64,000 nucleotides of DNA from Candidatus Campbellbacteria bacterium (GTDB lineage Bacteria > Patescibacteriota > Minisyncoccia > Phycocordibacterales > EsbW-18). The notes under the pieces were generated by a model. It did not search any database. It worked only from the letters and a program-made list of their open reading frames with translations, and was not told the origin of the DNA. Positions within the stretch are counted from its first letter, which is position 1. Each line of letters starts with the position of its first letter. Position numbers and translations under genes: made by a program. The stretch spans positions 11,940-75,939 of the forward strand of contig JANLIT010000002.1 of assembly GCA_024653945.1 (NCBI GenBank), in the 5' to 3' direction. Of the stretch, positions 5,828 through 58,924 are shown piece after piece.

Positions 5828-5880
5828 AAATCACGTTGAATCATCTCAAACTAAAGACAGAAACAAGAAAAGTTGCATAA

Positions 5881-5910
5881 TAAAAACCCTCGCTTCTGGC
5901 GAGGGTTTTT
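5881..5910. terminator. bidirectional terminator hairpin
   Basis: aaaaaccctcgc-ttct-ggcgagggttttta. Confidence 0.55.
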
Positions 5911-7059: not shown

Positions 7060-7510
7060 TTTTTGGTGTCCTTCTGGAAAAGACAACTGTTTGAACCTTA
7101 CGATTATCCCAATCGGTCGTCTTGAGTATTTTTTGAAGATGTAGAACCTCATCTCTCATACTCCTCGTTACAATAAAAATTGCGGGAGTTTGTATCTTTT
7201 TTAAGACTCTAAACCATCGAGCAACTTTTTGGAGGTATTTTTTACTGTAGTGGGGTTTTTCCGTTGAGCGTTTCTCCAAAAATTCTTTATCTTGAAAAGT
7301 TTCTACTTCATCAACGATTACTACCCTTCCCTTTGGTGAGGTACGTATCCGGTCACAATCGGGAAAATACGAAACTGCCATTTTTTTACGTTTTAGAAAT
7401 GGTATAAGTTCCTTCAAAACAAAGTATGTTTTCCCGGAATCACTTGTACCAACTAAAAAGACACTCTTCTTTTTCTTGAGTAAGTTATAAATCTTATTTT
7501 TACGGTTCAT
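7031..7510 (-). CDS. small P-loop NTPase
   Basis: Walker A VFLVGTSDSGKTYF, Walker B-like VVIVDEVE; ATG at 7510 preceded by TATAAT only ~6 nt upstream (leaderless-type start). Confidence 0.6.
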   Translation of the reverse strand: MNRKNKIYNLLKKKKSVFLVGTSDSGKTYFVLKELIPFLKRKKMAVSYFPDCDRIRTSPKGRVVIVDEVETFQDKEFLEKRSTEKPHYSKKYLQKVARWFRVLKKIQTPAIFIVTRSMRDEVLHLQKILKTTDWDNRKVQTVVFSRRTPKNEKDIISIK

Positions 7511-7532
7511 AGCTGAATTATATAAAAGAAAT

Positions 7533-7563
7533 ACGGAGAGAGGAACACTTCCCTCTCTCCGTA
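7533..7563 (-). terminator. intrinsic terminator after the rSAM-peptide pair
   Basis: minus-strand acggagagagg-gaagtgtt-cctctctccgt followed by atttctttt. Confidence 0.6.
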
Positions 7564-7575
7564 TGTAGTGCTGGA

Positions 7576-7698
7576 TCACTTCGTCCGGCACGGGATGTTC
7601 TTGGCCATCTTGCAGCCTGCGCCCGCCTTGGAGTGCTTGGAGCTGCAGGGACGCGGCTCGGAAGCCACAGCAATGCGGGTTCTGCGGTACTTACGCAT
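7576..7698 (-). CDS. 40-aa basic Cys-containing peptide MRKYRRTRIAVASEPRPCSSKHSKAGAGCKMAKNIPCRTK (candidate rSAM substrate/precursor)
   Basis: ATG 6 nt after the rSAM stop codon, SD-like GGGGGTGAAAG upstream, 3 Cys, ~62% GC against a ~40% background, followed by a terminator. Not in the ORF track because it is under 60 aa. Confidence 0.4.
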   Translation of the reverse strand: MRKYRRTRIAVASEPRPCSSKHSKAGAGCKMAKNIPCRTK

Positions 7699-7704
7699 GT
7701 TCTT

Positions 7705-9003
7705 TCACCCCCTTTCGTGTGCGTAGAAGTGGATAACGTCGCACTTATGCCTAGACGGTATCCTGTAGTCACCGCCCTCTACGAGAGCTAGGCCAATGCA
7801 ACTGTCGCAGTAATTCCGATTGCGACAGACCATGCACTGCTGCATCTCTCGAAGAGAGAACTGAGTGAGTACCTGTTTTCGTCGTCGGAGAATCTCGGCC
7901 AATGACTCAGAGGAAGTATCCCCCAACGGTACCCTGAGATCGAGACAAGGATAGACAACGCCCCGTGGGTCAATGGCTATTTGATCCCTACCAGCAAAAC
8001 ACACAGTGTGATTTCGACAGTCGCGATACTTCTTCTGGGTAGGAAAACCGCCGATGCGATCCAGAAAAGGCTTAAACTTCTCTTCCATCTCCTGATACGA
8101 AAGACGGAAAAGCACTTCTTTTCCTGGGCCACTACGGTTCGGTGTAATGTATGGACTGTAGAAAATCGACGCTCCGATTTTCGTTAGAACATCGTGGACC
8201 TCATCGATTCGGTCGATGTTGTGTTTTCCAACCAAAACCGAGAGTGTGACGGGTAGTCCGCACCGAAGCATCTGACGGACGCTCTCCTTGAGTCGATCAA
8301 ATCGATATACCGACCTGGTTAACTCTGAGTACCCAGTCCGTGTTTCATACACCGAAACCTGGATGTCGTACAGGTGAAATCGTGACAACTTTTCGACGGT
8401 ACCCAGAGTGAGAGCCGTTCCGTTCGTTTTTAGTTCCAGAACGAAACCAATCTCCTCAAGATCTTCCATCACAGAGATAGCGTCTCTGCGGAGAAAGAGC
8501 TCTCCTCCTGTAAGAAGAACAAAAACCACTCCCGCCGACTTCAATTCTTGTCCCAACTTCTGAATTCTGTCCCTGGACAAGCCCTTCTCATGGAAGTTGT
8601 CCAAATAGCACCAACTACAACGCTGGTTGCAAAGATACGTCAGCTCGAGATTCGCGTTGATAACCTGCCACTCGCGTATTGCGTAAGCAGACAACTCCTC
8701 TAATGCCGTCTTTTGGGTCCGAATCACTTTTTGTGGGAACCTGTACGCCGACTCATCAGACAAGGAACGAATCACTTCTTTGATTTCAGCAAAATCTGTT
8801 GTAATGTCACCACTATCCTCTGGACGAAATTGCTCCAGAAAATCGTTGGTGAGTTGATGCTGTGGTTCGTTGACAATTCTAACTGCCTGACTTGCAAGAG
8901 GACCCTCGAAAAAAGCTGATTTACGGGTCGTCTTATTAATGATGAATGAAGCGCCCCGAAAATCTCGTGAGATAAGGTTTTTCACGGCCACACCCCTTTT
9001 CAA
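7705..9003 (-). CDS. radical SAM enzyme with C-terminal SPASM-type auxiliary cluster domain and ~100-aa N-terminal extension (possible peptide-recognition domain)
   Basis: CNQRCSWCY (CxxxCxxC) about 120 aa in; C-terminal Cys cluster CFAGRD..YPC..CMVCRNRNYCDSC; GC higher than surroundings. Confidence 0.85.
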   Translation of the reverse strand: MKRGVAVKNLISRDFRGASFIINKTTRKSAFFEGPLASQAVRIVNEPQHQLTNDFLEQFRPEDSGDITTDFAEIKEVIRSLSDESAYRFPQKVIRTQKTALEELSAYAIREWQVINANLELTYLCNQRCSWCYLDNFHEKGLSRDRIQKLGQELKSAGVVFVLLTGGELFLRRDAISVMEDLEEIGFVLELKTNGTALTLGTVEKLSRFHLYDIQVSVYETRTGYSELTRSVYRFDRLKESVRQMLRCGLPVTLSVLVGKHNIDRIDEVHDVLTKIGASIFYSPYITPNRSGPGKEVLFRLSYQEMEEKFKPFLDRIGGFPTQKKYRDCRNHTVCFAGRDQIAIDPRGVVYPCLDLRVPLGDTSSESLAEILRRRKQVLTQFSLREMQQCMVCRNRNYCDSCIGLALVEGGDYRIPSRHKCDVIHFYAHERG

Positions 9004-9111
9004 AGAACTGTAGATGTCGCAGAAGTCTCTATCGTTCTGCTGGTGATAATAAAAGCTGCTACGTATTCTGTCAATACCTCCACAAAATCGACTTTAGAAA
9101 AATTTTATCCT

Positions 9112-9139
9112 CTACATTGCTGGGAATTCGACGAAAAAG
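9112..9139 (-). repeat. direct-repeat copy of the histidine-kinase 3' end (encodes FFVEFPAM*), att-like
   Basis: ctacattgctgggaattcgacgaaaaag aligns with 10702-10728 and 11403-11432, including the in-frame stop. Confidence 0.6.
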
Positions 9140-9142
9140 TGT

Positions 9143-10680
9143 TCACTTTTTAAAATATCCATTCTGTATGCTGTATTCTCTTGTTATCCCAAGGTGGCCA
9201 CATAAGTCTTCGTTGTGAGAAACAATCAGAATTGCACCCTTGAAGTTAGCGAGTGCCTCTGTAAATACAGAGATGGTAGAAATGTCCAAATTGTTAGTTG
9301 GTTCATCAAGAACTACACAATCAAAGTCAGCAATGGTTATCATCGCCAGAGAAAGTCGTGCCAACTCCCCACCGGAGAGTGACCCGGCTTTTTTATTTAC
9401 CTCTGGTGTTTCTCTAAAAAGAAATTGAGCCAAGTGTGTACGCAAAAGTTTGTCATCTGTTGTATGTGTAATACGCTGTATATTTTGAAGTACAGTAAGT
9501 TCTCGGGAAACCAAATCATAGTGCTGGTCTAAATACACCACCTTCAAACTTGGCGTTTTTTTGACTATGCCAACAAGTTTTGCAGGGGAGGTGTCGTCAA
9601 AAAGTGCTCTAAGAAGAAGTGTTTTACCAGACCCATTATCTCCCGTAATCCGTACCCTGTCTCCGGTAAACACATCAAAAGAAATATCCGATACCACTGT
9701 TTTATTTGGAAGAACGAGGTTGGCACCATCAACCGATACTACAAATCTTCTACCTATTTTTTTTGAAGGTACATCAAGCCGTACAATGTGTTTTTTAGAG
9801 AGTATGGCATCCTGCAAATCCTCTTCTTTTTCTTCTTTTGCACTCTTTAGTCTCGTGAGGTTCTTTCCTGATTGTTTCTCCGATTGTTCTTTAAAATATC
9901 CCTTTTCGTACGGCGACATATTGTTGTCCAGTTTCTCTTTTTTTCCAACAGATACAGACCTCTGCTTCTTTGTGTGTTCAACAACAAGTGCCAACTTCGC
10001 TTGTTTCACTATTTTTTTCTTTGCCTCAAACTGGCGCGTGGCAGCGGCGCGTTCGTTCTCAATCAATTGTGCATACGTCGTATAGGTACCTTCCGTGGTT
10101 CTAATTTTTTGATGTTCAATGGTCCAAATTTGGTTAGTTGTTGCATTCAAAAAGTCTATATCGTGTGACACGACGACATACGCACCCACAAAAACTTTTA
10201 GATAGGACTTCAGACGAGCAATTCCAGCAGAATCAAGATGATTGGTTGGTTCATCAAGTAATAGAATACCTGGGGCCAACACTCGAGCAAGAGAAAGATA
10301 TACTTTGATGTATTCCCCACCAGATAAGTTACTCATTTTTGAGTCGAAGGGTACTGTTTTTTTGAAAGGGTCAAAAACTCTTTCTCAAAAAGATGTTTTG
10401 AAACCGAGTGTTTGGATAAGAGAGTGGCAAGAGTGGCTTCTTTATCTGCATCTCTTTTTTGAGGAACAATAAATACTTTTCCATTCACTGTGCAAGAACC
10501 TGTGTCTGGCGCAATATCCCCATGTATCATTTTGAGCAATGTCGTTTTTCCTGTTCCGTTATCACCAATAAGACCAACACAATCTCCTGAAAACAGGGTG
10601 AGGTGCGAAATATGCCACAAAAGCTGATCTCTTATTGAGTAGGATGCGTCTTGTATGAGAATAAGAGGGTTCCTGTTCAT
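9143..10680 (-). pseudogene. ABC-F family ATPase (two NBDs, EttA/Uup-like), interrupted by a frameshift in a homopolymer
   Basis: Track ORFs 10333..10680 (Walker A GLIGDNGTGKTT) and 9143..10336 (starts MSNLSGGEY: signature, Walker B LLLDEPTNHLD, then a second NBD with GDNGSGKT, LSGGELARL, VVLDEPTNNLD) meet at a 7-T run (+ strand 10357-10363). Eight would restore one 500+-aa ABC-F reading frame. Confidence 0.7.
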
Positions 10681-21539: not shown

Positions 21540-22124
21540 CTAATTGTCAATTCCAAATCGTTTATATGAGTAAATTGGGCTTGTTCCAAACCAGTAGTCT
21601 ATCTCGTGCTTCGCTTCTTCGGGTGTTTCTGACGCATGCACCAGGTTCATAATTGCTCGTTTCTCGGCATTTGCCAGTACCGGAGAGTCAACGGAAAAAT
21701 CACCACGAATGGTGCCCATTTCTGCAAGGTACGGGAGAGTTGGACCGACAATTTTGCGCACCATGTCAACAGCATGCACACCTTCAACCACCATTCGTAC
21801 CGATGGTCCCATAATAAGGTATTCAATGAGCCACCCCCTCACCTTCTGGCCTATTTCCATGGTGTCTTTAGTTCCCATCTCCTCAATTGCGTCAATACCA
21901 TACTTCTCATATGTGCCCATGGTCTTTTCTCCAAGGCGGTTAATCCATTTTGTATCCTTAGGATAGTGGTCGTTCACACGGTCTTCTGTCGCCTGAAACA
22001 TCTCAAGAGCAACGATCTTCAAATCCCGTTGTTCAAAACGCTGAATAATCTCTCCCACAAGCCCCTTTCGGACTCCGTCGGGCTTTACCATCACAAATGT
22101 TTTCTCTTCTCTGGGGTTTCGCAT
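21540..22124 (-). CDS. ndk: nucleoside-diphosphate kinase-like protein, with insertions
   Basis: FVMVKPDGV..GLVGEII.RFE..G..IVALEM...NLVHASE (NDK active-site His context, NIIHGSD-like); 194 aa, longer than canonical. Confidence 0.7.
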   Translation of the reverse strand: MRNPREEKTFVMVKPDGVRKGLVGEIIQRFEQRDLKIVALEMFQATEDRVNDHYPKDTKWINRLGEKTMGTYEKYGIDAIEEMGTKDTMEIGQKVRGWLIEYLIMGPSVRMVVEGVHAVDMVRKIVGPTLPYLAEMGTIRGDFSVDSPVLANAEKRAIMNLVHASETPEEAKHEIDYWFGTSPIYSYKRFGIDN

Positions 22125-22276: not shown

Positions 22277-25057
22277 TCAAATTTTATACATTGCGTTGAT
22301 TCCAGCTTCAAGTTCTTCGCGAGGACGGCCAAATTTTGCATAGGAAAGTTCCTTCAAGGTATCTACTTTCGTCATATCAGGTTTTTCTGGATACATGGTT
22401 GCGATTGAAAACGGTCGCTCTGTTTTATTTCGAACAAGCATCTTAAGGAATCCGTTGAAGTTGTCTACGTTCATCAAATCGTTTGCGGTAAACACGGGAG
22501 CGAACTGTTTTTCCAAAAATTCAGCATCATCAGAACCAACACGGAAGGAGCACATGGAACCGACGTTGCCAAAGACCGCGTCTTTAATTTTTTCATCCAA
22601 CTGTTTAATGTACTGATGAAAAATACTGAGTCCCAATTTGTATTTTCGTGCTTCCGAGAGAATGGTGGCGATTGAATTTGTGGTGATATTTTGAAATTCA
22701 TCAATGTAGAGATAAAAATTTGGAACATCTCCTTTGCCAACTGCATCAACGCGAGACAGTGCGGCCATGAGAATTTTTCCCACAATAATAAGTCCGACGA
22801 GGTTTGCGTTGATATCACCAAGTCGCCCCTTTGAGAGGTTTACTAAAAGAATTTTACGCTTGTCCATAATATCTCTGAAGTTAAATGCCGAATGTTTCTG
22901 CATCACAATAGGACGCATGATGTCATTGGCAAGAAAGATGTCAAATTTGCTCGTGATGTACGGAACCATGTTTGCAAGAGATGCTTCCCCACCCGCTTTT
23001 TCGGCAACTTCACGCCAAAATTGAACAACCACAGGATTTTTACATCTTGAGAGTTTCAAATCACGAAATGCTTTCTCTGACATGACACGCGACACATCAA
23101 ACAGTGTGTTGCCTGTATCAGGATCTTCAATCACGAGCATTGTCGCATTGCGGAAGTACTGCTCAAACATTGGTCCCATACTCTCAGGCACTCCTCCGTA
23201 CAATTTCTGGAAGATAGAAAAGAGTTCATTCACCACAAACGTCTTCTGTTCAGGGAACGCGGGGTCATATTCCAACATATTGAGTCCCATTGGACGTGCC
23301 GTGTACGCTGGGTCAAAATAAATAACGTCATCAAAACGCTCTTGAGGAACCGATGCGAGTACTTCCATAAGGTCGGTCCCGTGAGGGTCAATCATGCACA
23401 CACCTTCTCCATTCTTAATGTCCTGTATAATCATGTTTTTCAAAAGCGTCGTCTTTCCTGTTCCTGTCTGACCAATACAATAGAAGTGGCGCAACCGATC
23501 TCCCTCCGTCATGTAAATTGGCGTCTTGGTGTTACCGTACACGTTTTCGCCAAGCAACAAACCTTCAGTTGGCAAATCAACTGGTGCAGGAGAACCTCCT
23601 GCTTTTGCACGTTTGAGTTCACGCGATGAGTCACTTCCCACAGCAGGAACGTGGGCGAATGTTGCGAGCTCACGAAGATTCATGGGCAATATCTCATCTG
23701 TGGAGAAAAGTCGGAATGCAAATTCTTTTACCAATCCAGTGAGTTTTGTTTTAGTGAAGCGTGTAAACTTCAATGCGTTTCCACGCGGATCTTCAAGCTG
23801 GCTGAATGTTGCCTCAAGTTCAGACAAAATTGCATCTGAGCGCACTTGTGATGTTGATGACGCAAGGAGACGAATGTTTGTTTCAACGATGGTTTGGCTA
23901 AATTTTTGTTTGAGCTGTTCAATGGTGATGTCGTCCACTGGTCGCTCGCGCTCTTTTTCTTTTTTCTTGTCTTCTTTCTCTTTTGACGCAAAAAAGAATG
24001 AGTGCACCTCTTTACCAACTGACACGACAACCGATTTCTCTGCAAGCGCTTCCTTCATCGGCGTACCTTTCGCCATTTTTTCTATCACTTTTCGAATTTT
24101 GTCCGCATAATCGGTTTCTGCCGGTCGAATCAACACCTGCAATGCAGCGCCTTCACCAACGCGCAACAACTTTCCAAACGCCGACAAAAGAATCGTCAGT
24201 GGGTCGTAATCAAAATGTTCATGTGTTTTGAGAGGAAGCATATACGGCCGTGCGTATGCAGCAATAGAGCCGGCGGTTTTACCTTCTGGAAAGAAAATAT
24301 TGTAATCATTTTTGCGGTCGGCGACACGCGCTTGTGGAAAAATAGAGAGCAACTGTTTCTCAAAAATATCTTTCTTTTCCGTTGGTACCGACATATAGAG
24401 CGTGACGTGTTCAAGGTGCGCTTCAACAGCAAGTTCAATAGAGAAGTACTTTTTCTTTGAACCTTTTTCTGACGCAACTGAGAGTGCGCCGGCGTAGAGT
24501 TGTTCCATTGATGACAGGAGCTCTTTAAGCGGGCGTTGGTGCTCCTTTGCATCCTTGGCATCAAACGGGAGCGTTACCTCTAGGAGCGTCATGTGGAGCG
24601 CCTTCCAGAGTGGTTCGCCTTCTTTGATACCTTTTGTTATATATCCTTCTTTTAAGTATTCGGATAAAAAACGATGAAAGTCGTCTTCAACGTGCGGATT
24701 ATCCATTTTTTCAACAATAGACAGCGCATTACGTATTCCCTTTTCCTGCATTACCGAGAGAAGTTCAGCAATAATGGTATCGTGCTCCTCTGGGGCAAGG
24801 TCCAAAACAACGGCATCAATTTCTGGCTTCAGCATCTCGTGACCTTTCGCAAGCACTGTTTCTGGCGCATGCCCAGCATATGTGTGTATGACTTCTTTTT
24901 CTGGCGTTGGATGAGAGAGCTCGTGTGTTCCTGCATCTACATTTTTTTCAAGTTGTTTGAGTCGTTCACGCAAAAAATTCACCTCTTCATTGGGTGTGGT
25001 GAACTTTTTTTCAGGTGTCAAAGAGAACGTCTCCATATGCACTTTAGTATAGCGCAT
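22277..25057 (-). CDS. VirD4/TrwB/TraD-type coupling-protein-like P-loop ATPase with ~500-aa soluble N-terminal region (no TM helices)
   Basis: Walker A CIGQTGTGKTTLL followed ~25 aa later by MIDPHGTD (the GxTGxGKS...DPxG arrangement of type IV coupling proteins); Walker B FYLYIDEFQN. Confidence 0.65.
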   Translation of the reverse strand: MRYTKVHMETFSLTPEKKFTTPNEEVNFLRERLKQLEKNVDAGTHELSHPTPEKEVIHTYAGHAPETVLAKGHEMLKPEIDAVVLDLAPEEHDTIIAELLSVMQEKGIRNALSIVEKMDNPHVEDDFHRFLSEYLKEGYITKGIKEGEPLWKALHMTLLEVTLPFDAKDAKEHQRPLKELLSSMEQLYAGALSVASEKGSKKKYFSIELAVEAHLEHVTLYMSVPTEKKDIFEKQLLSIFPQARVADRKNDYNIFFPEGKTAGSIAAYARPYMLPLKTHEHFDYDPLTILLSAFGKLLRVGEGAALQVLIRPAETDYADKIRKVIEKMAKGTPMKEALAEKSVVVSVGKEVHSFFFASKEKEDKKKEKERERPVDDITIEQLKQKFSQTIVETNIRLLASSTSQVRSDAILSELEATFSQLEDPRGNALKFTRFTKTKLTGLVKEFAFRLFSTDEILPMNLRELATFAHVPAVGSDSSRELKRAKAGGSPAPVDLPTEGLLLGENVYGNTKTPIYMTEGDRLRHFYCIGQTGTGKTTLLKNMIIQDIKNGEGVCMIDPHGTDLMEVLASVPQERFDDVIYFDPAYTARPMGLNMLEYDPAFPEQKTFVVNELFSIFQKLYGGVPESMGPMFEQYFRNATMLVIEDPDTGNTLFDVSRVMSEKAFRDLKLSRCKNPVVVQFWREVAEKAGGEASLANMVPYITSKFDIFLANDIMRPIVMQKHSAFNFRDIMDKRKILLVNLSKGRLGDINANLVGLIIVGKILMAALSRVDAVGKGDVPNFYLYIDEFQNITTNSIATILSEARKYKLGLSIFHQYIKQLDEKIKDAVFGNVGSMCSFRVGSDDAEFLEKQFAPVFTANDLMNVDNFNGFLKMLVRNKTERPFSIATMYPEKPDMTKVDTLKELSYAKFGRPREELEAGINAMYKI

Positions 25058-25067
25058 CTATACCAAC

Positions 25068-28000
25068 CTATCCTACATTCTCACGTTGGATAACGACAGC
25101 AAGTGCACGCCTAATGAAAGCCTCTGTAGTTTCTTCCCCCCTAAAGATTCCTCCAATAGGACGCAGGCCTGAGTCTCGTGAAAGCATCATGAGGTAATGC
25201 TGGAGTTTTTTGGCTGGAGTGTCATCGGGAAATTGCATTTTCTCAAGAACCTTACGAGCATCCATTGTTTTCCACTGTGTCCACTCTGACCATTCTTCTT
25301 TGAGCGTTCCAAATATCGCACGCATATCACGATTCATCTCATGTTCGATATGTTCAGGACTCAATAAGTGTTCTAGAGAAAGGTTATCTGATACTAAAGG
25401 TCCAAGCCCTTCCCGTTCTTCGAACGGAAGATTTTCTATAGTGCCCGTAGTGTCCTCGGGTAAGGTTGCCGTTTCAGTATATTCTGTAGATGTATCATTC
25501 ACCCCTTGCTCCACGCTTCCTGCGAGGTCGCTAGCGACGACATCTTCTGGTATCTCTGTAGCAACGTCTTCGGGAACATTATTTGGAACAATTCCTTCCT
25601 CAAACCCTGAGGAGGGTATTTTTTCTATCCCATGTGTGCTATCCGGATGGAGCACGTCACTGTAATTAATACTTGAAGTATTTGAAAATTCAAAATGTGC
25701 CACTTCCCCATTTCCTGCAGGAACATACTGTAAAATGTCCCCTTCATGAACAAGGTTGAGTTCTGCAATTGGTATCTCGCGACCATCAGGAAGATGCGCC
25801 ACCGAATGAGACCACGCGTCAGCAAATCCTTTTTTATCAAGATGAAATCTTTCTCCAAGTTCTTTTGCTGAGTTCCAAATATTTCCTCCACGTTCAATAT
25901 CAATTAGTTCTGGGTGTGGAGCAGATTCAAATACACCTGATTCAACAGCGTCGGCATGGTGAGCTGACTTAATAATTTCTGCAATGTTTGCAGTACTTGC
26001 AGCATCTTTTGAATAGACAATTTCGTCTTGTGGACCAATACCATGGAACGTCCCACGGGACGGAATCATTGCAATATCATTTTCTGAAAGTTCTGTATTT
26101 CCCGATACTGATTTAAACATTTCTGGTGCCCGCTTTGGCCAACCAAACATATCTGGCGCAAAATGTCGCAGTACGTAACCAGCCATACTAAAGCCCGCAC
26201 CCATAATGGCACCGTGAACCATTTGATCTCGGAGAAATTTCTTTTGTGAGTCTTTAATTTTTTCCTCATGCAGACCGGTGAGTGCGTCAAGTCGTTGTTC
26301 TAGTTCAGCTTTGTGATTTGCATCACCAACACCCTCATGTGAAGCAACAAATGTAGAGGCGTGGCTCATTGCTTGAACAATATCTAGTTGATTTTTGAGA
26401 CGGTCATTAAACGTACCAAAATCCATTTTGCTGGTATATATTTTATTCTCGGTGTAGTAAATGCGCTCCTCAAGCTGTGAAAATAGTGTCTCCTTTTTGG
26501 CTTCATCGGTTTCATTTTCTATACGTTGTATGAGATGATTAATTTTCTTTTTTGATTCGTCTACATGAATAATATTTTCCGCAGTTGTACTTGTATCATC
26601 AACACCTCGGCGTGCACCTGCTTGTTGCTCTTTTAGTGTTTTTTGCGCGCGTCGTCGAGCCATAAAACCACCCATACCAGCGGCGGCAAGAGGAAGACCG
26701 AGTGTTCCGAGTAACGCACCCGTCATCGCACGAGTAGCAAAACCAGCACCAAAATAAATACCACGTTCAGTTACAATATCCTTGAGAGAACGTACCCACA
26801 CTTTTTCATCGGTGATTTTTTGTATTTGCGCCTCTGCTTCAGGATGTGTTGAAAATAGCTGGTCCATACGTACGCGAGCATATATGGTGTTCATCTGCTC
26901 GGCTAATGTCACCCTATCAGAACCGTTTTTTGCTTCGAGAAGTAGGAGCGCATTGGCGCGTGCTTGGATGAATTGTTTTTCAGCTTCCTCATATTTTTTT
27001 CGTTCTGAACGAGACGCGGTCTCACGTGCCCATTCTGTTGGAATATTTGTAAACACATGGGCTGCTGTATTGAACGAGCGCAGTGTTTCTTCTTCTGCTT
27101 CATTTTCCGCTTGTATTCCGTTTGTGTAGAGAACTTCAAGAGTGCCTTCTTTGTCAAAAACAGCGTCAAGACCAACTTCACGTGTACCAGTTACTAATTT
27201 TTCAATAACATCCCTGTATTCACCTATACCCGCTTTTTGTAGATCCTGCGCTGTTGCTTTTTCAAGTTTTGCAGATTGGTATCCTTTTGTAATACCACGC
27301 CAAAATCGTCCAAAAAATCCTGCCTTTTTATTTTCTTCTGCTCCATGCGCTGCAGCATCCTCCTTAATCTTACCGAGTATAATTTGTTGCAGGTTTTCTT
27401 GTACGAGTGCTTTTTGCCCGATGGTAAGTTCACTGTACCCAGGAACTGTTTCAAGATCTTCTGCCCTCATTCCTGTAAATATTTTTTCAAATTTCTCGTT
27501 TATCTGTGTCAATCTAGCCACAGATGGAAATTTTTCTGGCTTTTCTTCAATTGGTAGATTTGCAGGAGCTTCTGCGATAACCTTCACAGCATCGTGCGCA
27601 CCCTCAATTTGTTCTTTCGTTATACCAACCTCTACCCCCGTCGTAAGAATACTCAAAAGATGTCTTTTTCTTGCTCTCTTTTCCTTCAATTCTTCCGAGG
27701 AAAGTTTTTTTGTACGAAAATCTGTTTCAATTCCTTCTAATTCGTCGGTTAATTTCAAAAACTCATCTTTTGTCTTACGAGAAAGCGTCTCATCATTTTC
27801 TATTCCTATACGCCGACTGTCCAAATACTCCCGTTTCTCTTTTGGCAAAACTATCGTTTCTCCTACCGTTGGTTCTATTTTTGTCTCATCAAAATGCTGG
27901 AGAAAACTTTTATGTATCCTTTCAAACTTATCTCCTTCCTCTTCTGGTATCACGGCAGTATTAACTGTTTCGGGTACACTAACCGCGGTGGGAACTTCTT

Positions 28001-28487
28001 CGGATACGGCTTCTTCTTGAGTAGAAACTGGTGTCACTGTTTCTGGACTAACGGGAACGCTCTCTTTTTCCAGAGAGACGGTGAGTATCCCCGCATTGAT
28101 ACTAATTTTCTTAATTGGAGCATTAAATTTTTTCTCAAGATATTTTACGATACCCGGAATAAGATCGGGTAGATATTTAGTAAGCTTTCTTGTAACCAGT
28201 GCTCGTTTAACCATCCCTGCCCGAACTTTAAAATCACCCGCTTTTAGACGCTGACCATCACTTTCTAGTGATCCATCAACACCAAATTCACCCGCAAGAT
28301 CGTGAGTAAGCTCTGCAGAAATTGAGATTTTGTTTCCATCTCCACCAACCTTTAGTCCACGCACCTCTGCAAGCCCCTGCAGAAGAGTTCGAATCTCATT
28401 CTCCAGTTCTGGGGTAGTCAAAGATTCTTCTTTTAAAGTTTTTTCTTTTGCAGGTTCTTGAGGCAACTGTGGTCCTTCAAATGTCAT
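25068..28487 (-). CDS. 1139-aa protein with central membrane segment(s) and extended coiled-coil/charged regions; unknown function
   Basis: hydrophobic GIYFGAGFATRAMTGALLGTLGLPLAAAGMGGFM near the middle; 11-nt gap to the coupling-protein-like gene. Confidence 0.55.
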   Translation of the reverse strand: MTFEGPQLPQEPAKEKTLKEESLTTPELENEIRTLLQGLAEVRGLKVGGDGNKISISAELTHDLAGEFGVDGSLESDGQRLKAGDFKVRAGMVKRALVTRKLTKYLPDLIPGIVKYLEKKFNAPIKKISINAGILTVSLEKESVPVSPETVTPVSTQEEAVSEEVPTAVSVPETVNTAVIPEEEGDKFERIHKSFLQHFDETKIEPTVGETIVLPKEKREYLDSRRIGIENDETLSRKTKDEFLKLTDELEGIETDFRTKKLSSEELKEKRARKRHLLSILTTGVEVGITKEQIEGAHDAVKVIAEAPANLPIEEKPEKFPSVARLTQINEKFEKIFTGMRAEDLETVPGYSELTIGQKALVQENLQQIILGKIKEDAAAHGAEENKKAGFFGRFWRGITKGYQSAKLEKATAQDLQKAGIGEYRDVIEKLVTGTREVGLDAVFDKEGTLEVLYTNGIQAENEAEEETLRSFNTAAHVFTNIPTEWARETASRSERKKYEEAEKQFIQARANALLLLEAKNGSDRVTLAEQMNTIYARVRMDQLFSTHPEAEAQIQKITDEKVWVRSLKDIVTERGIYFGAGFATRAMTGALLGTLGLPLAAAGMGGFMARRRAQKTLKEQQAGARRGVDDTSTTAENIIHVDESKKKINHLIQRIENETDEAKKETLFSQLEERIYYTENKIYTSKMDFGTFNDRLKNQLDIVQAMSHASTFVASHEGVGDANHKAELEQRLDALTGLHEEKIKDSQKKFLRDQMVHGAIMGAGFSMAGYVLRHFAPDMFGWPKRAPEMFKSVSGNTELSENDIAMIPSRGTFHGIGPQDEIVYSKDAASTANIAEIIKSAHHADAVESGVFESAPHPELIDIERGGNIWNSAKELGERFHLDKKGFADAWSHSVAHLPDGREIPIAELNLVHEGDILQYVPAGNGEVAHFEFSNTSSINYSDVLHPDSTHGIEKIPSSGFEEGIVPNNVPEDVATEIPEDVVASDLAGSVEQGVNDTSTEYTETATLPEDTTGTIENLPFEEREGLGPLVSDNLSLEHLLSPEHIEHEMNRDMRAIFGTLKEEWSEWTQWKTMDARKVLEKMQFPDDTPAKKLQHYLMMLSRDSGLRPIGGIFRGEETTEAFIRRALAVVIQRENVG

Positions 28488-28491
28488 AGGT

Positions 28492-29304
28492 TTATTCTAA
28501 CATCGTTACAACTTCTGGTACGCCATCTGTGATAATGAGCGTATGTTCCCACTGCGCGGTTCGGGAACCATCAACTGTTTTGTATGTCCACTCGTCCTCA
28601 GCAATATCTACTTCACCGCTTCCTTCCGAGACCGTTGGTTCAATGGTAATCACCATCCCCGGCATTAATTTTTTCCCTTTGCTCTTTTGTGCGATATGAA
28701 AAATATGTGGTTCCTCGTGCACTGTGTGCCCCGTACCGTGTCCACCAAGTTCAGCAACAACCTCAAATCCTTCCTTGAGGATATATGGCTCTATTACATT
28801 TCCAATAGCACTAACATACGCTCCTGCACGCGCGACATCAATACCCTTGAAAAGCGCCTTTTTAGTCACTTCAATGAGTCGTTTGGCGGTAGCATCTACA
28901 GAACCGACGGGGACTGTGATGCACATATCTGCTATTCGCCCTTTGTGAATGAGGCCTGTATCCAAACTTACAATATCTCCTTCTTTCAAAATTCTATCTT
29001 TGCTCGGAATACCGTGCACCGCTTGGTTGTTTATTGAAACGCAGAGTGTTGCTGGATACGGAGATGGGGCACCCGCTGGTTTGTAATTTAAAAATGCTGG
29101 AATGTCACCACCCGCACGAATAAGGTCTTCGGCCATATCATTGAGTTCTTGTGTAGAAACACCTGGTGCAACCGCTTTGCCAATGGTATCCAAAATACGA
29201 GCAAGACGTTTCCCCGCAATGCGGATGAAATCTAAATCTTCAGGTGTTTTAATGAGAGACATATTTTCAATAGTGATGAACGTTGTACCGATATATCGGT
29301 ACAA
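28492..29304 (-). CDS. map: methionine aminopeptidase, type I
   Basis: metal ligands in HGIP..D.V.LD..........HTVHEEP..E...VITIEP context. Confidence 0.9.
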   Translation of the reverse strand: MYRYIGTTFITIENMSLIKTPEDLDFIRIAGKRLARILDTIGKAVAPGVSTQELNDMAEDLIRAGGDIPAFLNYKPAGAPSPYPATLCVSINNQAVHGIPSKDRILKEGDIVSLDTGLIHKGRIADMCITVPVGSVDATAKRLIEVTKKALFKGIDVARAGAYVSAIGNVIEPYILKEGFEVVAELGGHGTGHTVHEEPHIFHIAQKSKGKKLMPGMVITIEPTVSEGSGEVDIAEDEWTYKTVDGSRTAQWEHTLIITDGVPEVVTMLE

Positions 29305-29312: not shown

Positions 29313-29906
29313 TTAGTTATTGGACAGTACGCTAACAATTTTTTCTTGCACCTCTTCAATCGTCCCCATACCGTCAATTTCAAGAAGCGTTCCTTGTTGT
29401 TTAAAGAAGTCCAGTGACCCTTGTGTGTTGTTTTGATACTCTTGGAGACGTTTTGTTATAATCGCTTCGTTGTCATCAGATCGTGTCTCAACTTGTGCTC
29501 GTCCTTTAATTCGCAAACGAAGTTCTTCATCGGGAATGTTGAGATACACAACCACATACGGTCGCTTCAAATAGCGCATCACCTCATCAAATAATTTTGC
29601 CTCCTCAAGTACACGAACCGCACCATCAAAAATAATTCCCTTATCATGACCGAGTGTAACCATTGCTGAAGTCCAGAGATATGACACAATCCAATGTGGA
29701 ACTAAAATTCCTTGGTCCATATCTTTTAAAATCTCTGCACCAATATCTGGATGTGACTGTGCAAGCGCCTTCAGATGTCCCGACGATGAAAAAACAGAAA
29801 ATCCTAATTTTTCTGAAAGCAGTTTTGCCTGCGTTCCCTTTCCAGAACCCGGCTTTCCAAGAATGACGATGGTGTTATATTGCATGCCTTCAGTATACCC
29901 GAGCAC
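29313..29906 (-). CDS. adk: adenylate kinase (short form, no zinc lid)
   Basis: P-loop ILGKPGSGKGTQA; ..GFLLDGFPR-like ..GIIFDGAVR. Confidence 0.9.
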   Translation of the reverse strand: MLGYTEGMQYNTIVILGKPGSGKGTQAKLLSEKLGFSVFSSSGHLKALAQSHPDIGAEILKDMDQGILVPHWIVSYLWTSAMVTLGHDKGIIFDGAVRVLEEAKLFDEVMRYLKRPYVVVYLNIPDEELRLRIKGRAQVETRSDDNEAIITKRLQEYQNNTQGSLDFFKQQGTLLEIDGMGTIEEVQEKIVSVLSNN

Positions 29907-30107
29907 TAACCCAAATAGAAACGGTTAGTGCTGGGCGAGCCTAAGCGAGGTTTAACCTCGCTAACCTCGGAAGTGCTTGTGACTTATAGTTACGACCGTA
30001 GCCATAAGTCACATTGAAATTGTGTCCGTAAGGTCGAACCTTACGTTTCTGAGGTAAATAAAAGAGCCGCCCGAGAGCGAGCGGCTCGTTGGGCGGCGGG
30101 TGGATAC

Positions 30108-30503
30108 CTACAGGATCGATTCCTCCTGAAAGGTGGGGATGTCCATACTCATGTTGTGCAACTCCTCGGCACCCCATGTTTGTGATTCTGTGTCGGTGTG
30201 GTGCGGACCACGGTCCTTGTGCCGAATAGCCCGTACAACGACCCACTGCTCGTCCTTAAAGTGCCACCGCGGATCCTTCTGTTTCGTGAACCACATTCCG
30301 ACTTCTCCGCCAGGAATCTTGAAGGAAACGACGACAAACTGTCTTCCTTCAGATTCCTCTTCTGTGGAGGTCATCGCCAGCACAACTGGCAACACGATGC
30401 GCCATTCGAAGACGCGATCCTGGTTGATGATCGCAGTAAGCACCATCAGGCCAAGCCGTTCCGGCACCGAGAACTGTGTTTCTTTTCCACGAATCTGCAC
30501 CAT
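30108..30503 (-). CDS. island hypothetical protein (131 aa)
   Basis: SD AAAGGAGAAG 8 nt before the ATG; terminator hairpin with T-run just downstream. Confidence 0.4.
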   Translation of the reverse strand: MVQIRGKETQFSVPERLGLMVLTAIINQDRVFEWRIVLPVVLAMTSTEEESEGRQFVVVSFKIPGGEVGMWFTKQKDPRWHFKDEQWVVVRAIRHKDRGPHHTDTESQTWGAEELHNMSMDIPTFQEESIL

Positions 30504-30746
30504 GGCGCTTCTCCTTTCCGGAGTAGACCGACAGGATTGTCGGCAGGCCTTTCCGGCCGTTTGGTACTGCTACCCGAACACTCGTCGGGGTTAATCTGGC
30601 AACACACTATGCTTATCTGCAAAGAAAGTCAAACCAAACGTCCCGCTTTCTCGGTCCTGTTGTGTTGGACACTGAGTGTCCAACACTCGGATACTGGAAA
30701 CAAAAGAGCCGCCCGAGAGCAAACGGCTCTTTGGACAGCCCAGACC

Positions 30747-31007
30747 CTACTTGGAAAGGATGGCAACTCCGATTATCAACTTCCGAGTAGCACCCCTATC
30801 TCGCAGAGTCCTCGATTTCTTGATCTTCTTCAAACTAAGGATTGCGTGGTGTTGCTTGCCCTCCTCATCTTGGACACTCAAATGCAGAGTTCCCATACCG
30901 CCCTCGAAAAGCCAGTTGGCAAGAGCAGAAGAAACAACCTCCTGCCCACCCAAAAGCGTTCCCGCGATACCAATGTTGCTCTGTGCGGTTACTTTTGGAT
31001 ATAGCAT
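30747..31007 (-). CDS. island hypothetical protein (~86 aa from the internal ATG MLYPKV..)
   Basis: SD AAAAAGGAGAAGG before the ATG at 31007; terminator hairpin downstream. Confidence 0.4.
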   Translation of the reverse strand: MLYPKVTAQSNIGIAGTLLGGQEVVSSALANWLFEGGMGTLHLSVQDEEGKQHHAILSLKKIKKSRTLRDRGATRKLIIGVAILSK

Positions 31008-31152
31008 TTCCTTCTCCTTTTTCCAAGGTCTATAGTTAAACAAATTCTGATAGGACAATACGCTTCTAGATAAGCAAAGTCAAACCAAACGTCCTTGTAT
31101 TTAAAGTCCCGCCCAGACATTGTCTGGGCGGGGCGTCGTACGAAGCGAGTCT

Positions 31153-31230
31153 CTATTTTTGAAAGACTTTGTAGGCACGGCGGTGCCGGAAAGAGAAAAC
31201 CGCCACCGGGCGGTTTTCGTGCTTTCAAAA
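31153..31230. repeat. palindromic terminator element directly 3' of secY
   Basis: ctatttttgaaagactttgtaggcacggcggtgccggaaagagaaaaccgccaccgggcggttttcgtgctttcaaaaata. Confidence 0.65.
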
Positions 31231-31249
31231 ATATGAGACGAGTGAAGAG

Positions 31250-32533
31250 CTAGTATTCACGTAATGACACTTGCGCGTCAATCTTTTTCACCAAATCAAT
31301 AATAACCGAGACGGCGATGAGGAGCCCTGTACCACCAACTGCAAGAGAGGTAATGCCAGTCAAACCTTGCATAATGAGAGGCAAAATAGCGATAACACCC
31401 AGAAATGAAGCGCCGAGAAGGGTTAACCGAGTGAGAATGTTTGCAATGTGTTCGGATGTTGATTGACCTGGGCGAACACCGGGAATAAACGCACCGCCCC
31501 GCTGAAGATTCTTTGAAATGGCATCTGGATCAAAGGTAACCGCGGTGTAAAAATACGTAAACAAAAACACAAGAAGGAAGTACGCGACACCGTACGACCA
31601 CCCATTATTCAAAAACCACTGCACGCCAGCAACCATCTTCTGCACGATTGGATTAGCAACTCCCGCAAGAAAGTTTGCAATCATACCTGGAAACAAGAGG
31701 ATGGAAAGCGCAAAAATGATTGGCATCACACCCGCTTGGTTCACGCGAAGTGGTAGGTATGTTGACACACCTCCGTATACTTTGTTGCCACGAATTTGTT
31801 TTGCGTAGGTAACAGGAATTGGTCGTTCTGCCTCTGTTACAATCACAACACCAATAACAATGATGAGTCCAACAACCAGAAAGGCGAGGTACATTGGCAA
31901 CTGTTCGGGTGTGAATGAAAATACGGTTGTTTGTAATGCGCTTGGAATACGTGACACAATACCTGCAAAGATGATGAGTGACATTCCGTTACCAATGCCA
32001 AATTCAGAAATAAGTTCACCAACCCACATGAGGAGTACCGAGCCCGCAACAATCACGATAATGTTGGTGATGAGTGACAAAGATGAGAGATCACCTATAA
32101 CCCCGTTTCGTTGGAGTAGTGTAATAAATCCAAATGCAGAGAGGGCGGCAAGTGGAACAGTGAGCAACCTAGAGTATTGTGCAATACGACGTCGTCCCGC
32201 CTCCCCTTCTTCATGAAACATCGCCTTGAGTTGTGGTGAAAGAATGGTGAGCAACTGCATGATGATTGAACCAGTGATGTATGGACCAACTCCGAGCATC
32301 ACAATTGAAAGACCTGAAAGTCCTCCTCCTGAAAAAAGGTTGAGAAGACCGAAAAATTGATTGTTTGCAAAAAACTGAGAAAGCGCATTAATATCAACAC
32401 CTGGAATTGGAATTGCGGCAAACACGCGCGTCAGTGCGAGTCCTGCAATAACAAAAAGAATGCGAGTTCGCAATTGGCGATCCCCCATAATAATGGAAAA
32501 TTTTTGTACAAAGTTTTTCATCATACGTAACAA
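31250..32533 (-). CDS. secY: preprotein translocase subunit SecY
   Basis: 10-TM SecY; likely true start is the MMKNF ATG near 32524. Confidence 0.9.
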   Translation of the reverse strand: MLRMMKNFVQKFSIIMGDRQLRTRILFVIAGLALTRVFAAIPIPGVDINALSQFFANNQFFGLLNLFSGGGLSGLSIVMLGVGPYITGSIIMQLLTILSPQLKAMFHEEGEAGRRRIAQYSRLLTVPLAALSAFGFITLLQRNGVIGDLSSLSLITNIIVIVAGSVLLMWVGELISEFGIGNGMSLIIFAGIVSRIPSALQTTVFSFTPEQLPMYLAFLVVGLIIVIGVVIVTEAERPIPVTYAKQIRGNKVYGGVSTYLPLRVNQAGVMPIIFALSILLFPGMIANFLAGVANPIVQKMVAGVQWFLNNGWSYGVAYFLLVFLFTYFYTAVTFDPDAISKNLQRGGAFIPGVRPGQSTSEHIANILTRLTLLGASFLGVIAILPLIMQGLTGITSLAVGGTGLLIAVSVIIDLVKKIDAQVSLREY

Positions 32534-58696: not shown

Positions 58697-58842
58697 AATA
58701 TAAAATAGTTTGTTGTTGAGAACAGCAATCGTTCTCAGTGTACTGTTAGTATAGTACCGCTGTATACAACTAATACCAATTGCGAGTGTTAATAAAAAGC
58801 CCCGCCTAGCACACTGTGCGTAGGCGGGGCTTTTCTTTCTAT

Positions 58843-58923
58843 TTTTTGTTATTTGCTATTTGCTATTTGAATTGCTTCCTACTTCCTACAAGCTACAAGC
58901 TACAAGCTACAAGCTACAAGCTA
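58843..58923. repeat. tandem heptanucleotide repeats: (tatttgc)~3, (cttccta)2, (caagcta)5, in the spacer between the two giant genes
   Basis: read directly. Confidence 0.7.
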
Positions 58924-58924
58924 C

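Follow-up and report, generated by a model that had tools for sequence, protein, structure and literature searches.

The window analysed here, a 64-kb stretch of a Ca. Campbellbacteria MAG, encodes an ATPase of a Patescibacteria family in which the Pfam domain DUF8128 (PF26449) is combined with a nucleotide-binding domain (NBD) and all-alpha domain (AAD) similar to those of coupling proteins (T4CPs). The family is already catalogued, its members being named "TraM recognition domain-containing protein" by NCBI. The explanation that we prefer, if tentatively and with somewhat less than even confidence, is that the ATPase is a ring-forming (hexameric) translocase that was derived from a coupling protein and reaches the membrane through partners. 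Next to it lies ORF1139, the gene for a giant, fast-evolving protein, which has been inserted between map and the ATPase gene in one Campbellbacteria sublineage.

The ATPase and its family

Both ORFs are present on the minus strand, where the original prediction had placed them, and they are genuine genes, not ORFs that arose by chance, since over 1800 homologues were found for the ATPase and three, at the same site, for ORF1139. The following parts of the ATPase can be distinguished:

22277..25057 (-), DUF8128/coupling-protein-like ATPase, 926 aa if counted from the first ATG (ORF and translation)
24638..25036 (-), helical module at the N-terminus, residues ~8-140, peculiar to the long form that lacks a TM helix
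23648..24610 (-), alpha/beta domain DUF8128, residues ~150-470
22283..23566 (-), coupling-protein-type ATPase domain of the FtsK/HerA superfamily, residues ~498-925, consisting of the NBD and the inserted AAD
23450..23473 (-), Walker A motif GQTGTGKT, invariant in 33 homologues, aligning to GATGTGKS of TrwB
23378..23395 (-), MIDPHG motif (hhDPxG of coupling proteins), with D, P, H and G invariant in 33 homologues, aligning to VIVDPNG of TrwB
22862..23257 (-), all-alpha insertion separating Walker A from Walker B, residues ~601-732 (modelled by AF2 as helices 603-731)
22694..22714 (-), Walker B motif YLYIDEF, with D and E invariant in 33 homologues, aligning to LWLFIDEL of TrwB

The second ATG, at 25036, is the likelier start and gives a protein of 919 aa; the homologues begin there, as does the NCBI model from a Ca. 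Campbellbacteria MAG (P0001, 919 aa), which is 100% identical to the ATPase. The predicted coupling-protein hallmark, GxTGTGK[ST]...hhDPxG, was found as GQTGTGKT and MIDPHG. An HQxxxQL motif is invariant as well, and with its catalytic motifs intact the motor is probably active.

A precomputed PF26449 match accompanies all ATPase homologues listed. Profiles of coupling proteins match the motor: the PF02534 score exceeds its gathering cut-off, PF12696 and PF01935 are matched by 33/33 family members and PF10412 by 30/33, the best NCBIfam match is TraD, and a search of PDB sequences with the family profile led to TrwB (E 6e-4). In terms of fold, DotL, TrwB, HerA and VirB4 are almost level as closest relatives, with the top Foldseek E-values for VirB4 / TrwK (8e-15, about 920 alignment columns). 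Very strong constraint acts on the motor. It is about 80% identical throughout Paceibacteria, the whole class, in contrast to the divergent plasmid-borne T4CPs, and the NBD and AAD remain 70-80% identical to homologues of which the N-terminal region is only 42-50% identical. The two most conserved parts are the C-terminal half of the NBD and the all-alpha insertion (column conservation 0.84, mean identity to distant homologues 79%).

The soluble N-terminal region of some 500 aa and the lack of a TM anchor, both foreseen in the original prediction, were borne out by a hydropathy scan of the ATPase and 120 long-form homologues. The sole hydrophobic window of the ATPase, residues 749-767 (KD19 1.96), lies within the ATPase core, and a hydrophobic N-terminal segment occurs in 0/120 long forms, where KD19 over the first 480 aa reaches 1.44 at most. 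In the AF2 model the N-terminal module forms helices at 21-136, and it carries the invariant motif LDLAPEEHD...DDFHRFL; the DUF8128 domain contains a low-confidence, poorly conserved linker at about 340-372. Short-form relatives of about 800-850 aa (Parcubacteria, Portnoybacteria, Roizmanbacteria; e.g. P0257, P0244, P0290) share the DUF8128 domain, the T4CP-like ATPase behind it and the Pfam set. They have a single N-terminal TM helix where the long form has its helical module of ~140 aa, a strongly hydrophobic N-terminal segment being present in 114/119 short forms (median KD19 2.94), and their genomic contexts are unlike those of the long form.

Gene order

The ATPase gene lies where the cluster of ribosomal-protein genes ends. 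The order in the window is secY, adk, map, ORF1139, ATPase, ndk, with the neighbouring genes as follows:

21540..22124 (-), ndk (nucleoside diphosphate kinase; NDK, E 6e-36), a conserved neighbour downstream of the ATPase gene
28492..29304 (-), map (methionine aminopeptidase; Peptidase_M24, E 4e-43), 4 nt upstream of ORF1139
29313..29906 (-), adk (adenylate kinase; ADK, E 1.5e-27), opening the tight run adk-map-ORF1139-ATPase
31250..32533, secY, upstream of adk-map

Gaps within the run from adk to the ATPase gene are only 4-31 nt. A terminator-like hairpin lies directly upstream of adk, at 30064-30087(-); the gaps inside the run yielded no such hairpin. In 46/83 loci map and/or ndk are retained beside the ATPase gene, for which map-ATPase-ndk is the common order; among the 38 map-linked loci, ndk comes after the ATPase gene in 33, and in 18 map is followed by the ATPase gene without an intervening ORF of >=60 aa, while assorted unrelated inserts fill the interval elsewhere. 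Conserved neighbours also include genes for a beta-CASP metallo-nuclease and a SLOG protein. Since 18/38 loci have nothing in between, and a relative with 83% identity (CP064977) has no giant gene there, the giant is a lineage-specific insert.

These data also bear on the proposal that the ATPase and its neighbour replace the genes from infA to rplQ that usually follow map. The usual genes are indeed absent after map: those for IF1, L36, S13, S11 and RpoA gave no tblastn match in the 64-kb window or the 83 related loci, in a search with no positive control, and precomputed Pfam gene lists of relatives back their absence. The conserved occupant of the site, however, is the ATPase gene alone. 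Replacement of the alpha-operon genes by the pair is ruled out, the split after map being lineage-wide and the giant a later, local insertion.

The giant neighbour

ORF1139 encodes an acidic protein (Asp+Glu 17%) without signal peptide, N-terminal hydrophobic segment or Pfam domain:

25068..28487 (-), ORF1139, lineage-specific acidic giant of 1139 aa, mostly helical or disordered
26088..27512 (-), conserved core from the homologue alignment, about residues 326-800, the first ~320 aa being variable
26661..26762 (-), Gly/Ala-rich hydrophobic segment 1 (GIYFGAGFATRAMTGALLGTLGLPLAAAGMGGFM), followed by ARRRAQK, residues 576-609, KD19 1.5
26163..26222 (-), Gly/Ala-rich hydrophobic segment 2 (MVHGAIMGAGFSMAGYVLRH), residues 756-775, ending a long predicted helix (723-775)
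25683..25907 (-), small domain towards the C-terminus, residues ~861-935, a conserved alignment block with pLDDT about 58-67

Its only three homologues found (P0122, P0123 and the 1401-aa protein of locus L039, matched by phmmer over residues 312-763) all lie between map and the ATPase gene. Segment 1 is almost invariant in the three homologues, adopts a helix-break-helix at 586-624 in a low-confidence model, and is a candidate membrane hairpin or Gly-zipper, even though its KD19 falls below the usual TM cut-off of 1.6. Segment 2, below even a cut-off of 1.2 in the scan, is a weaker candidate TM helix, read from the sequence rather than predicted. The C-terminal small domain has a strand-helix-helix-strand topology in the model, of which the beta-alpha-alpha-beta start is tentatively reminiscent of LysM; it gave no Pfam match even at E<=10. 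Of the membrane/coiled-coil protein that had been proposed, the membrane part thus stays plausible with segments below the cut-off, and the coiled-coil part comes down to long helices in a model with pLDDT 40. Further large proteins of the surface type are encoded at 55043-61369 of the window.

Giants of the same build, defined as proteins of >=580 aa that lack a hydrophobic segment at the N-terminus but have one rich in Gly, Ala, Ser and Thr at the centre, also adjoin members of the ATPase family in other lineages, although their sequences are unrelated (hhalign probability <=1.1% for the ORF1139 family against the others). They occupy 11/154 positions flanking the ATPase gene and 1/1177 positions elsewhere (odds ratio 90, Fisher p 4e-10), an enrichment that derives from perhaps five independent lineages and not from 11 independent events. 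Three gene orders recur, across five or more lineages: giant-ATPase, ATPase-giant-small protein, and giant-small protein-ATPase. The small proteins are of at least two unrelated types, and none occurs in the window. Most ATPase loci have no adjacent giant.

It could be argued that the adjacency is coincidental, ORF1139 being a hypervariable giant surface or envelope protein, of which Patescibacteria have many, that happened to be inserted where the spc operon ends, at a well-expressed site tolerant of insertions. The small number of homologues, the varied inserts between map and the ATPase gene in other loci, the large surface-type proteins at 55043-61369 and the closest complete genome, which has no giant at this site, would fit such an origin. 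Nevertheless, we consider it unlikely: chance would hardly concentrate giants of one build at precisely the positions that flank the ATPase gene, the spacing in the window is operon-tight, and the homologues of ORF1139 keep their position at 47-61% identity. The idea that the giant supplies membrane association to the ATPase gains indirect support from this enrichment, and from the TM helix that the short-form relatives have of their own. That giants would be an obligate partner is argued against by their hypervariability next to a highly conserved N-terminal module and motor, and by the many genomes without an adjacent giant.

Comparison with known systems

The likeness to T4CPs (TrwB of R388, VirD4, TraD/TraG, DotL/IcmO, Cagbeta) lies in an NBD that carries an inserted all-alpha domain between its two Walker motifs, in the motifs GxxGxGK[ST], hhDPxG and hhhhDE, and in the matches to PF02534, PF10412 and PF12696; sequence similarity to TrwB is limited to the P-loop and Walker B regions. 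Unlike T4CPs, the long-form ATPase has no N-terminal TM domain and carries about 500 extra N-terminal residues (helical module and DUF8128), and it is encoded by a chromosomal core gene that does not adjoin a relaxase or VirB4 gene. With VirB4 / TrwK it shares a soluble two-part build of 800-900 aa, in which an N-terminal domain precedes a TrwB-like C-terminal ATPase, and, by the preferred explanation, access to the membrane via partners, but it lacks a CagE_TrbE_VirB match, and AAA_10 is weak in 1/33 members. The closest described proteins are possibly two N-terminally extended T4CP-like ATPases of Southlakia epibionticum, SEML1_0293 and SEML1_0142, which are encoded away from the T4SS cluster and were compared by description (PMC10633639). 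SEML1_0293 (921 aa, non-essential) matches PF10412, PF12696 and PF01935, as the ATPase does, and is a candidate orthologue, although its P-loop domain lies about 120 residues closer to the N-terminus and it is extended at the C-terminus; SEML1_0142 (1019 aa, essential) has no Pfam match.

The ATPase might instead be a translocase or helicase akin to HerA/FtsK that works on nucleic acid in the cytoplasm, acting in DNA repair or processing or in the salvage of nucleotides from imported nucleic acid, with no role in secretion and no relevance of the giant. The missing TM helix of the long form would agree with this, as would the enzymes of nucleotide and nucleic-acid metabolism encoded nearby (adk, ndk, beta-CASP metallo-nuclease, SLOG protein), a short-form gene that in one case overlaps rmuC, a conservation so high that it suits a housekeeping substrate such as DNA, and the lack of de novo nucleotide synthesis in Patescibacteria (PMC10633639). 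Yet synteny with adk and ndk may be mere inherited gene order, and the profiles favour T4CP families, those of HerA_C (2/33) and FtsK_SpoIIIE (8/33) giving weak, sporadic matches. The HAS barrel, FtsK alpha or gamma domain, FHA domain and tandem ATPase domains of HerA, FtsK and EccC-EssC are absent, as is a NurA neighbour. Given also the membrane anchor of the short forms, the strong enrichment of giants, and the canonical, essential FtsK that S. epibionticum has, a purely cytoplasmic role seems improbable.

A substrate-recruiting ATPase of a secretion or conjugation-like system, as first proposed, is in keeping with the coupling-protein-type motor, whereas T4SS genes are missing nearby: VirB4, VirB6, VirB8, pilin and relaxase genes were found neither in the 64-kb window nor within 10 kb of the ATPase gene in 83 loci. 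In a published survey, only 148/5,713 patescibacterial T4CP homologues were near virB4, and genomes with T4CP homologues (2,918/3,035, 96%) outnumbered those with VirB4 (80%) (PMC12102498). The 96% support the status of a core gene, but the other survey counts and the missing T4SS genes weigh against the preferred explanation, as does S. epibionticum, where the T4SS is essential and the T4CP-like gene SEML1_0293, a candidate orthologue, is not.

The layout of ATPase and giant resembles that of type VII secretion, with an ATPase, a large substrate and a small helical partner, and that of the Dot/Icm coupling protein with its adaptor. By this analogy, the ATPase and the giant, with a helical protein of ~100 aa in other lineages, could form an export or anchoring module of a kind not described before, complete in itself and independent of the VirB4 system, the giant being a threaded or inserted client or a conduit. 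The recurring gene orders, the 90-fold enrichment, the overlapping or almost touching genes (10-31 nt in the window), and giants that lack a signal peptide yet have central hydrophobic segments and conserved C-terminal parts would speak for it, but it is the least probable of the explanations considered, as most loci, including that of the 83%-identical relative, have no adjacent giant, the giants show no demonstrable mutual homology, the small proteins are of unrelated types and absent from the window, and the surfaces of the ATPase are far more conserved than any giant.

Proposed role

The preferred explanation thus remains a coupling-protein-derived translocase. The ATPase would be a chromosomally fixed, Patescibacteria-specific T4CP derivative and ring translocase of the FtsK/HerA superfamily, of which the long form may use the N-terminal module or the DUF8128 domain to bind a partner and reach the membrane in this way. 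As local anchor or client, the giants would be the strongest candidates. Patescibacteria possess a genuine, separate VirB4 clade near dnaA (PMC12102498), and in the essential T4SS cluster of S. epibionticum no coupling protein can be recognised (PMC10633639). Hydrolysis of ATP may drive the transfer of a substrate, either DNA or an unfolded protein, to a conduit in the membrane, for which the patescibacterial VirB4-type secretion system, lacking a coupling protein in its own cluster, would be the best candidate.

Gene order and transcription

The ATPase encoded at 22277-25057 is an intact, strongly constrained motor of the coupling-protein type that has no transmembrane (TM) anchor. It is preceded by a 1139-aa ORF (ORF1139), and the surrounding genes are arranged as follows.

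Genes at the ATPase locus
31250-32533, minus strand, secY
29313-29906, minus strand, adk
28492-29304, minus strand, map
25068-28487, minus strand, ORF1139
22277-25057, minus strand, 926-aa ORF (ATPase)
21540-22124, minus strand, ndk

Both the ATPase and ORF1139 are 100% identical to entries of a Candidatus Campbellbacteria MAG (238.5-kb contig). The start of the ATPase in homologues and in the NCBI model is the second ATG (25036), which gives a protein of 919 aa. The genes adk, map, ORF1139 and ATPase are separated by 4-31 nt and appear to be co-transcribed, since a strong terminator-like hairpin (30064-30087, minus strand) is located directly upstream of adk, whereas none was detected in the gaps inside the run.

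This hairpin lies within a copy (~30055-30096) of an element that is repeated in the secY-adk spacer (29907-31249). The spacer measures 1.3 kb in an otherwise compact region, has a raised G+C content (0.49), and contains no convincing ORF and no Rfam match; an Rfam scan across the entire window likewise gave no match. Two ~35-40-nt hairpin plus T-run copies are present on the minus strand (~30055-30096 and 30698-30734), with the conserved sequence CCCaAaGAGCCGCytGCTCTCGGGCGGCTCTTTTaTTT, and a single copy occurs at the same secY-adk position in three relatives (loci L002, L003 and L086). The arrangement may represent a duplicated terminator or a small transcription unit that does not code for protein.

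Two other regions of the window deserve mention. Adjacent minus-strand genes at 55043-58696 and 58925-61369 encode large proteins (1217 and 814 aa) with weak matches only to PKD and SpaA-like prealbumin folds, which are probably surface or pilus-type adhesins. At 4013-10336, also on the minus strand, two ABC transporter genes (one at 4013-5827, whose product has a membrane domain, the other at 9143-10336) accompany the gene of a radical SAM/SPASM enzyme (7705-9003), and the region may serve the maturation and export of a peptide.

Classification of the ATPase

The coupling-protein motifs on which the original prediction was based are all present. GQTGTGKT (nt 23450-23473), MIDPHG (23378-23395) and the Walker B motif YLYIDEF (22694-22714) are invariant across 33 homologues of 53-83% identity and align with the corresponding motifs of TrwB, which was the only protein found among PDB sequences, with similarity limited to the surroundings of the P-loop and Walker B. 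The Pfam family T4SS-DNA_transf (PF02534) matches the window ATPase in its C-terminal ~430 residues with 27.9 bits (cut-off 20.1) and 21 of the 33 members at E<=0.01, while TraG-D_C (PF12696) and TrwB_AAD_bind (PF10412) match it together with 33/33 and 30/33 members, respectively. HerA_C was found in 2/33 members, FtsK_SpoIIIE (PF01580) weakly in 8/33, and the VirB4-type AAA_10 weakly in a single one. Because PF02534, PF10412 and PF12696 match but the NCBIfam TraD and VirD4 models remain far under their cut-offs (52 vs 366 bits), the profiles suggest a distant member of the type IV coupling protein (T4CP) family that includes VirD4, TraG, TraD and TrwB.

An AlphaFold2 model of the ATPase (pLDDT 74.7) consists of three parts, the last of which carries an insertion. 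Residue numbers refer to a 925-residue model without the first Met and are one lower than in the ORF.

Parts of the modelled ATPase
~21-136, helical module
~155-470, alpha/beta domain
499-925, RecA-like ATPase domain
~603-731, all-alpha insertion, between K535 and D786

TrwB, DotL and Cagbeta superpose on the model across 340-369 residues. The fold-comparison values are nearly equal for DotL (22.4), TrwB (21.7), HerA (21.5), the VirB4 C-terminal domain (20.8), DptH (20.2) and Cagbeta (19.7), so the predicted structure would assign the protein at the superfamily level, and only the sequence profiles lean toward coupling proteins. The fold proposed originally was essentially right, as was the lack of a TM helix: a hydropathy scan of the ATPase gave no TM helix and one hydrophobic window, which is inside the ATPase core. 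An internal duplication can be rejected: the N-terminal region is not a decayed version of the ATPase domain (hhalign probability 0.1% between the two).

With known T4CPs the protein shares the P-loop nucleotide-binding domain and its three motifs (Walker A, hhDPxG, Walker B), as well as the all-alpha insertion between Walker A and B. It differs by lacking the N-terminal TM anchor and, in the window and the 83 loci searched, the linkage to a relaxase or VirB4-type system. Other relationships fit less well. FtsK/SpoIIIE proteins have a gamma domain and a 4-TM N-terminus; the ATPase contains neither a gamma domain nor a TM helix, next to the weak PF01580 matches, and replacement of FtsK is unlikely since Southlakia epibionticum possesses a canonical, essential FtsK. 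The features of HerA proteins (HAS barrel, HerA_C, NurA partner) are not those of this ATPase, and besides the weak AAA_10 match the family has no CagE_TrbE_VirB match that would indicate VirB4. A role in defence is disfavoured because the ATPase shows the conservation of a core gene; PADLOC returned weak generic P-loop matches only (e.g. mad8, 41.7 bits).

Anchored and anchorless forms of the DUF8128 family

The precomputed Pfam match PF26449 (DUF8128) covers the N-terminal region of the identical protein P0001 and of all listed homologues; the name DUF8128 had no mention in the literature searched. The domain that it denotes is specific to the family. A phmmer search with residues 1-495 against 1.84 billion representatives yielded 889 clusters, of which the organism-named members are Patescibacteria without exception. 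The family comprises a long form of ~910-930 aa, to which the window ATPase belongs, and a short form of ~790-860 aa that is devoid of residues 1-145. A strongly hydrophobic N-terminal helix is present in 114 of 119 short forms (median hydropathy over 19 residues, KD19, of 2.94) and in none of 120 long forms. On this sequence evidence, the DUF8128 coupling-type ATPase has TM-anchored and anchorless versions, with a predicted soluble helical module in place of the TM helix.

Conservation is unevenly distributed and unusually high in the motor. Compared with homologues that are ~55% identical overall, identity reaches 79-80% in the all-alpha domain and in the C-terminal half of the nucleotide-binding domain, 70% in the N-terminal half of the nucleotide-binding domain, and 42-50% in the N-terminal region of the protein. 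The family itself is already catalogued, as Pfam DUF8128, under NCBI names and as part of the counts in a published survey. Its division into anchored and anchorless versions, its very strong conservation, its constant place behind map and the recurrence of giant neighbours appear not to have been described previously.

Two loci show unusual family members. In a Nomurabacteria locus (L077), an extra 496-aa paralogue upstream of map comprises nothing but a T4CP-like ATPase domain (E 3e-87 against the C-terminal profile of the family), and in a fragment a treble-clef zinc finger is attached to the C-terminus of the ATPase (coordinates 4825-6315 and 49-1248). In L084 (6933-16573), a TM-anchored short-form ATPase is encoded within a same-strand run of genes without Pfam domain, most of which encode TM segments (a 597-aa multi-TM protein and proteins of 222, 155, 251, 188 and 529 aa), with an FtsQ-like POTRA protein upstream; this run may represent a membrane complex.

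Genomic context in relatives

The context was compared in 80 loci from species-representative genomes and several metagenome loci (83 in the counts). The ATPase is adjoined by map and/or ndk in 46/83 loci. When map is upstream (n=38), no ORF of >=60 aa separates it from the ATPase in 18 loci (gaps of 6-364 bp), and ndk is found downstream in 33, usually with genes for a beta-CASP metallo-nuclease and a SLOG protein behind it. In view of these adjacencies, secY-adk-map-ATPase-ndk is the common order. The other 37 loci have different surroundings, and 17 of them form two separate ATPase subclades. It had been proposed that the ATPase and ORF1139 as a pair replace the genes that usually follow map. 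The absence of these genes stands, as no alpha-operon genes occur within 10 kb in any of the fetched loci, but it is the ATPase alone that holds the site across the class.

The VirB4-type partners that the original prediction sought were not encountered: no relaxase or VirB4-type secretion genes were detected in the window or in the 83 loci searched with the ATPase profile. Type IV pili or competence do not offer a general association either: of 82 loci, only 2 have a full T4P cluster within 10 kb, and 6 others have one pilM- or pilin-like match each.

In one clade, Cys-rich proteins of ~565-597 aa with CxxC repeats (zf_Tbcl_2-like) are encoded between adk and map, sometimes in tandem (L033, L042, L048 with two copies, L052, L054 with two copies, L057, L058, L067 and L077). 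They have no hydrophobic segments, and the ~570-aa proteins at this site in Nomurabacteria-type loci, considered as possible membrane giants, are such zinc-finger proteins instead.

Giant proteins next to the ATPase

Neither Pfam nor NCBIfam assigns a domain to ORF1139. Its homologues number only three, P0122 (61%), P0123 (50%) and a 1401-aa protein in L039, every one encoded between map and the ATPase. In a relative with an 83%-identical ATPase (CP064977) the map-ATPase interval is just 257 bp, which makes the giant a gene gained or lost in individual lineages. The protein varies over its first ~320 residues but is conserved from ~326 to ~800, and again in a small block at ~861-935. The first of these conserved stretches includes two Gly/Ala-rich hydrophobic segments, at 576-609 (followed by ARRRAQK) and 756-775, of marginal hydropathy: the first peaks at a KD19 of 1.5, for which the TM cut-off is usually 1.6, and the second is under the scan cut-offs. 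Judged by charge distribution only, the topology would be N-terminus inside and C-terminus outside. The AF2 model is unreliable (pLDDT 40, too poor for a fold search). A LysM domain at ~861-900 is doubtful, with no Pfam match at E<=10 for three homologous segments; a LysM-like beta-alpha-alpha-beta topology of residues 861-898 in the pLDDT-40 model is all that speaks for it.

Giants of the same build (580-1740 aa, acidic, without N-terminal hydrophobic segment, with central Gly/Ala-rich hydrophobic segments) repeatedly adjoin DUF8128 family members. In two separate subclades they are downstream of the ATPase, often followed by a ~100-aa helical protein, and in L001 and L024 they are upstream, likewise with a small protein. 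By a fixed definition, giants occupy 11/154 flanking positions and 1/1177 of the remaining positions in these loci (odds ratio 90, p 4e-10), a p value that overstates independence because they come from perhaps five independent lineages. The adjacency of giants with central hydrophobic segments to the ATPase is non-random. The build is all they have in common: iterated HMM and hhalign comparisons detected no homology of ORF1139 to other ATPase-adjacent giants.

The small proteins near giants are of at least two types, one weakly DUF5663-like. In the ATPase-giant-small arrangement, the acidic ~100-aa helical protein follows the giant gene (L031:15340-15654, L051:14102-14407, L062:8733-9059, L064:15616-15912, L066:12035-12355, L071:6481-6777 and L078:5323-5628), and it shows weak similarity to a DUF5663 protein that lies between giant and ATPase in L001 (9585-9896; hhalign probability 32%). 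A second, unrelated type of ~96 aa fills the giant-ATPase place in L024, L026 and L029. The idea that the C-terminus of ORF1139 is a fused copy of a small helical or DUF5663-like protein found no support.

Possible function and significance

In a 2025 survey of 3,035 Patescibacteria genomes, 2,918 encoded VirD4-like T4CP homologues, 5,713 in total, of which just 148 were located near virB4 (PMC12102498). Nearly all genomes of the group have about two coupling-protein homologues outside the T4SS cluster, with a role openly described as unknown, and the survey's authors allow for exaptation to other functions (PMC12102498). The essential T4SS cluster of S. epibionticum is without a recognisable coupling protein (PMC10633639), and the Tn-seq tables of that study contain two N-terminally extended T4CP-like genes away from this cluster. 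SEML1_0293 (921 aa, the same three Pfam matches as the window ATPase) is non-essential, and SEML1_0142 (1019 aa, 'TraM recognition domain-containing protein', no Pfam match) is essential, as is the 139-aa hypothetical protein encoded before it (SEML1_0141-0142; PMC10633639, supplement); SEML1_0293 and SEML1_0142 are candidate counterparts only. The survey treats only a non-essential homologue in this species (PMC12102498).

A long-form ATPase could be recruited to the membrane by a partner protein and feed substrate to a conduit, for which the VirB4 system is a candidate, and the adjacent giants might serve as anchors or clients. Against recruitment to such a conduit stands the lack of T4SS genes near the ATPase in the window and 83 loci, and the possibly related S. 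epibionticum gene is non-essential. As to the giants as partners, the N-terminal module is highly conserved whereas the giants are hypervariable, and most loci have no giant.

A bolder and rather improbable alternative is that TM-less DUF8128 ATPases and the recurrent Gly/Ala-zipper giants constitute an unrecognised, Patescibacteria-specific envelope machine, in which the soluble motor docks on, inserts or exports giant surface proteins independently of the VirB4 system. In some lineages it would also include the ~100-aa helical protein. If this is true, attachment to host cells could rely on the machine.

Patescibacteria depend on other cells, and the VirB4-type system of the single genetically tractable species is essential, yet its cluster lacks a coupling protein and no substrate is known for it. 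To this the present locus adds a T4CP homologue that is a very strongly constrained core gene, comes in TM-anchored and anchorless forms, is fixed at the end of the ribosomal/SecY gene cluster and repeatedly gains giant, perhaps membrane, proteins as neighbours. At stake is the identity of the ATPase that supplies the essential secretion system, or the existence of a distinct pathway for giant proteins. If the ATPase is a cytoplasmic DNA motor only, it bears on nucleic-acid handling in bacteria that lack de novo nucleotide synthesis.
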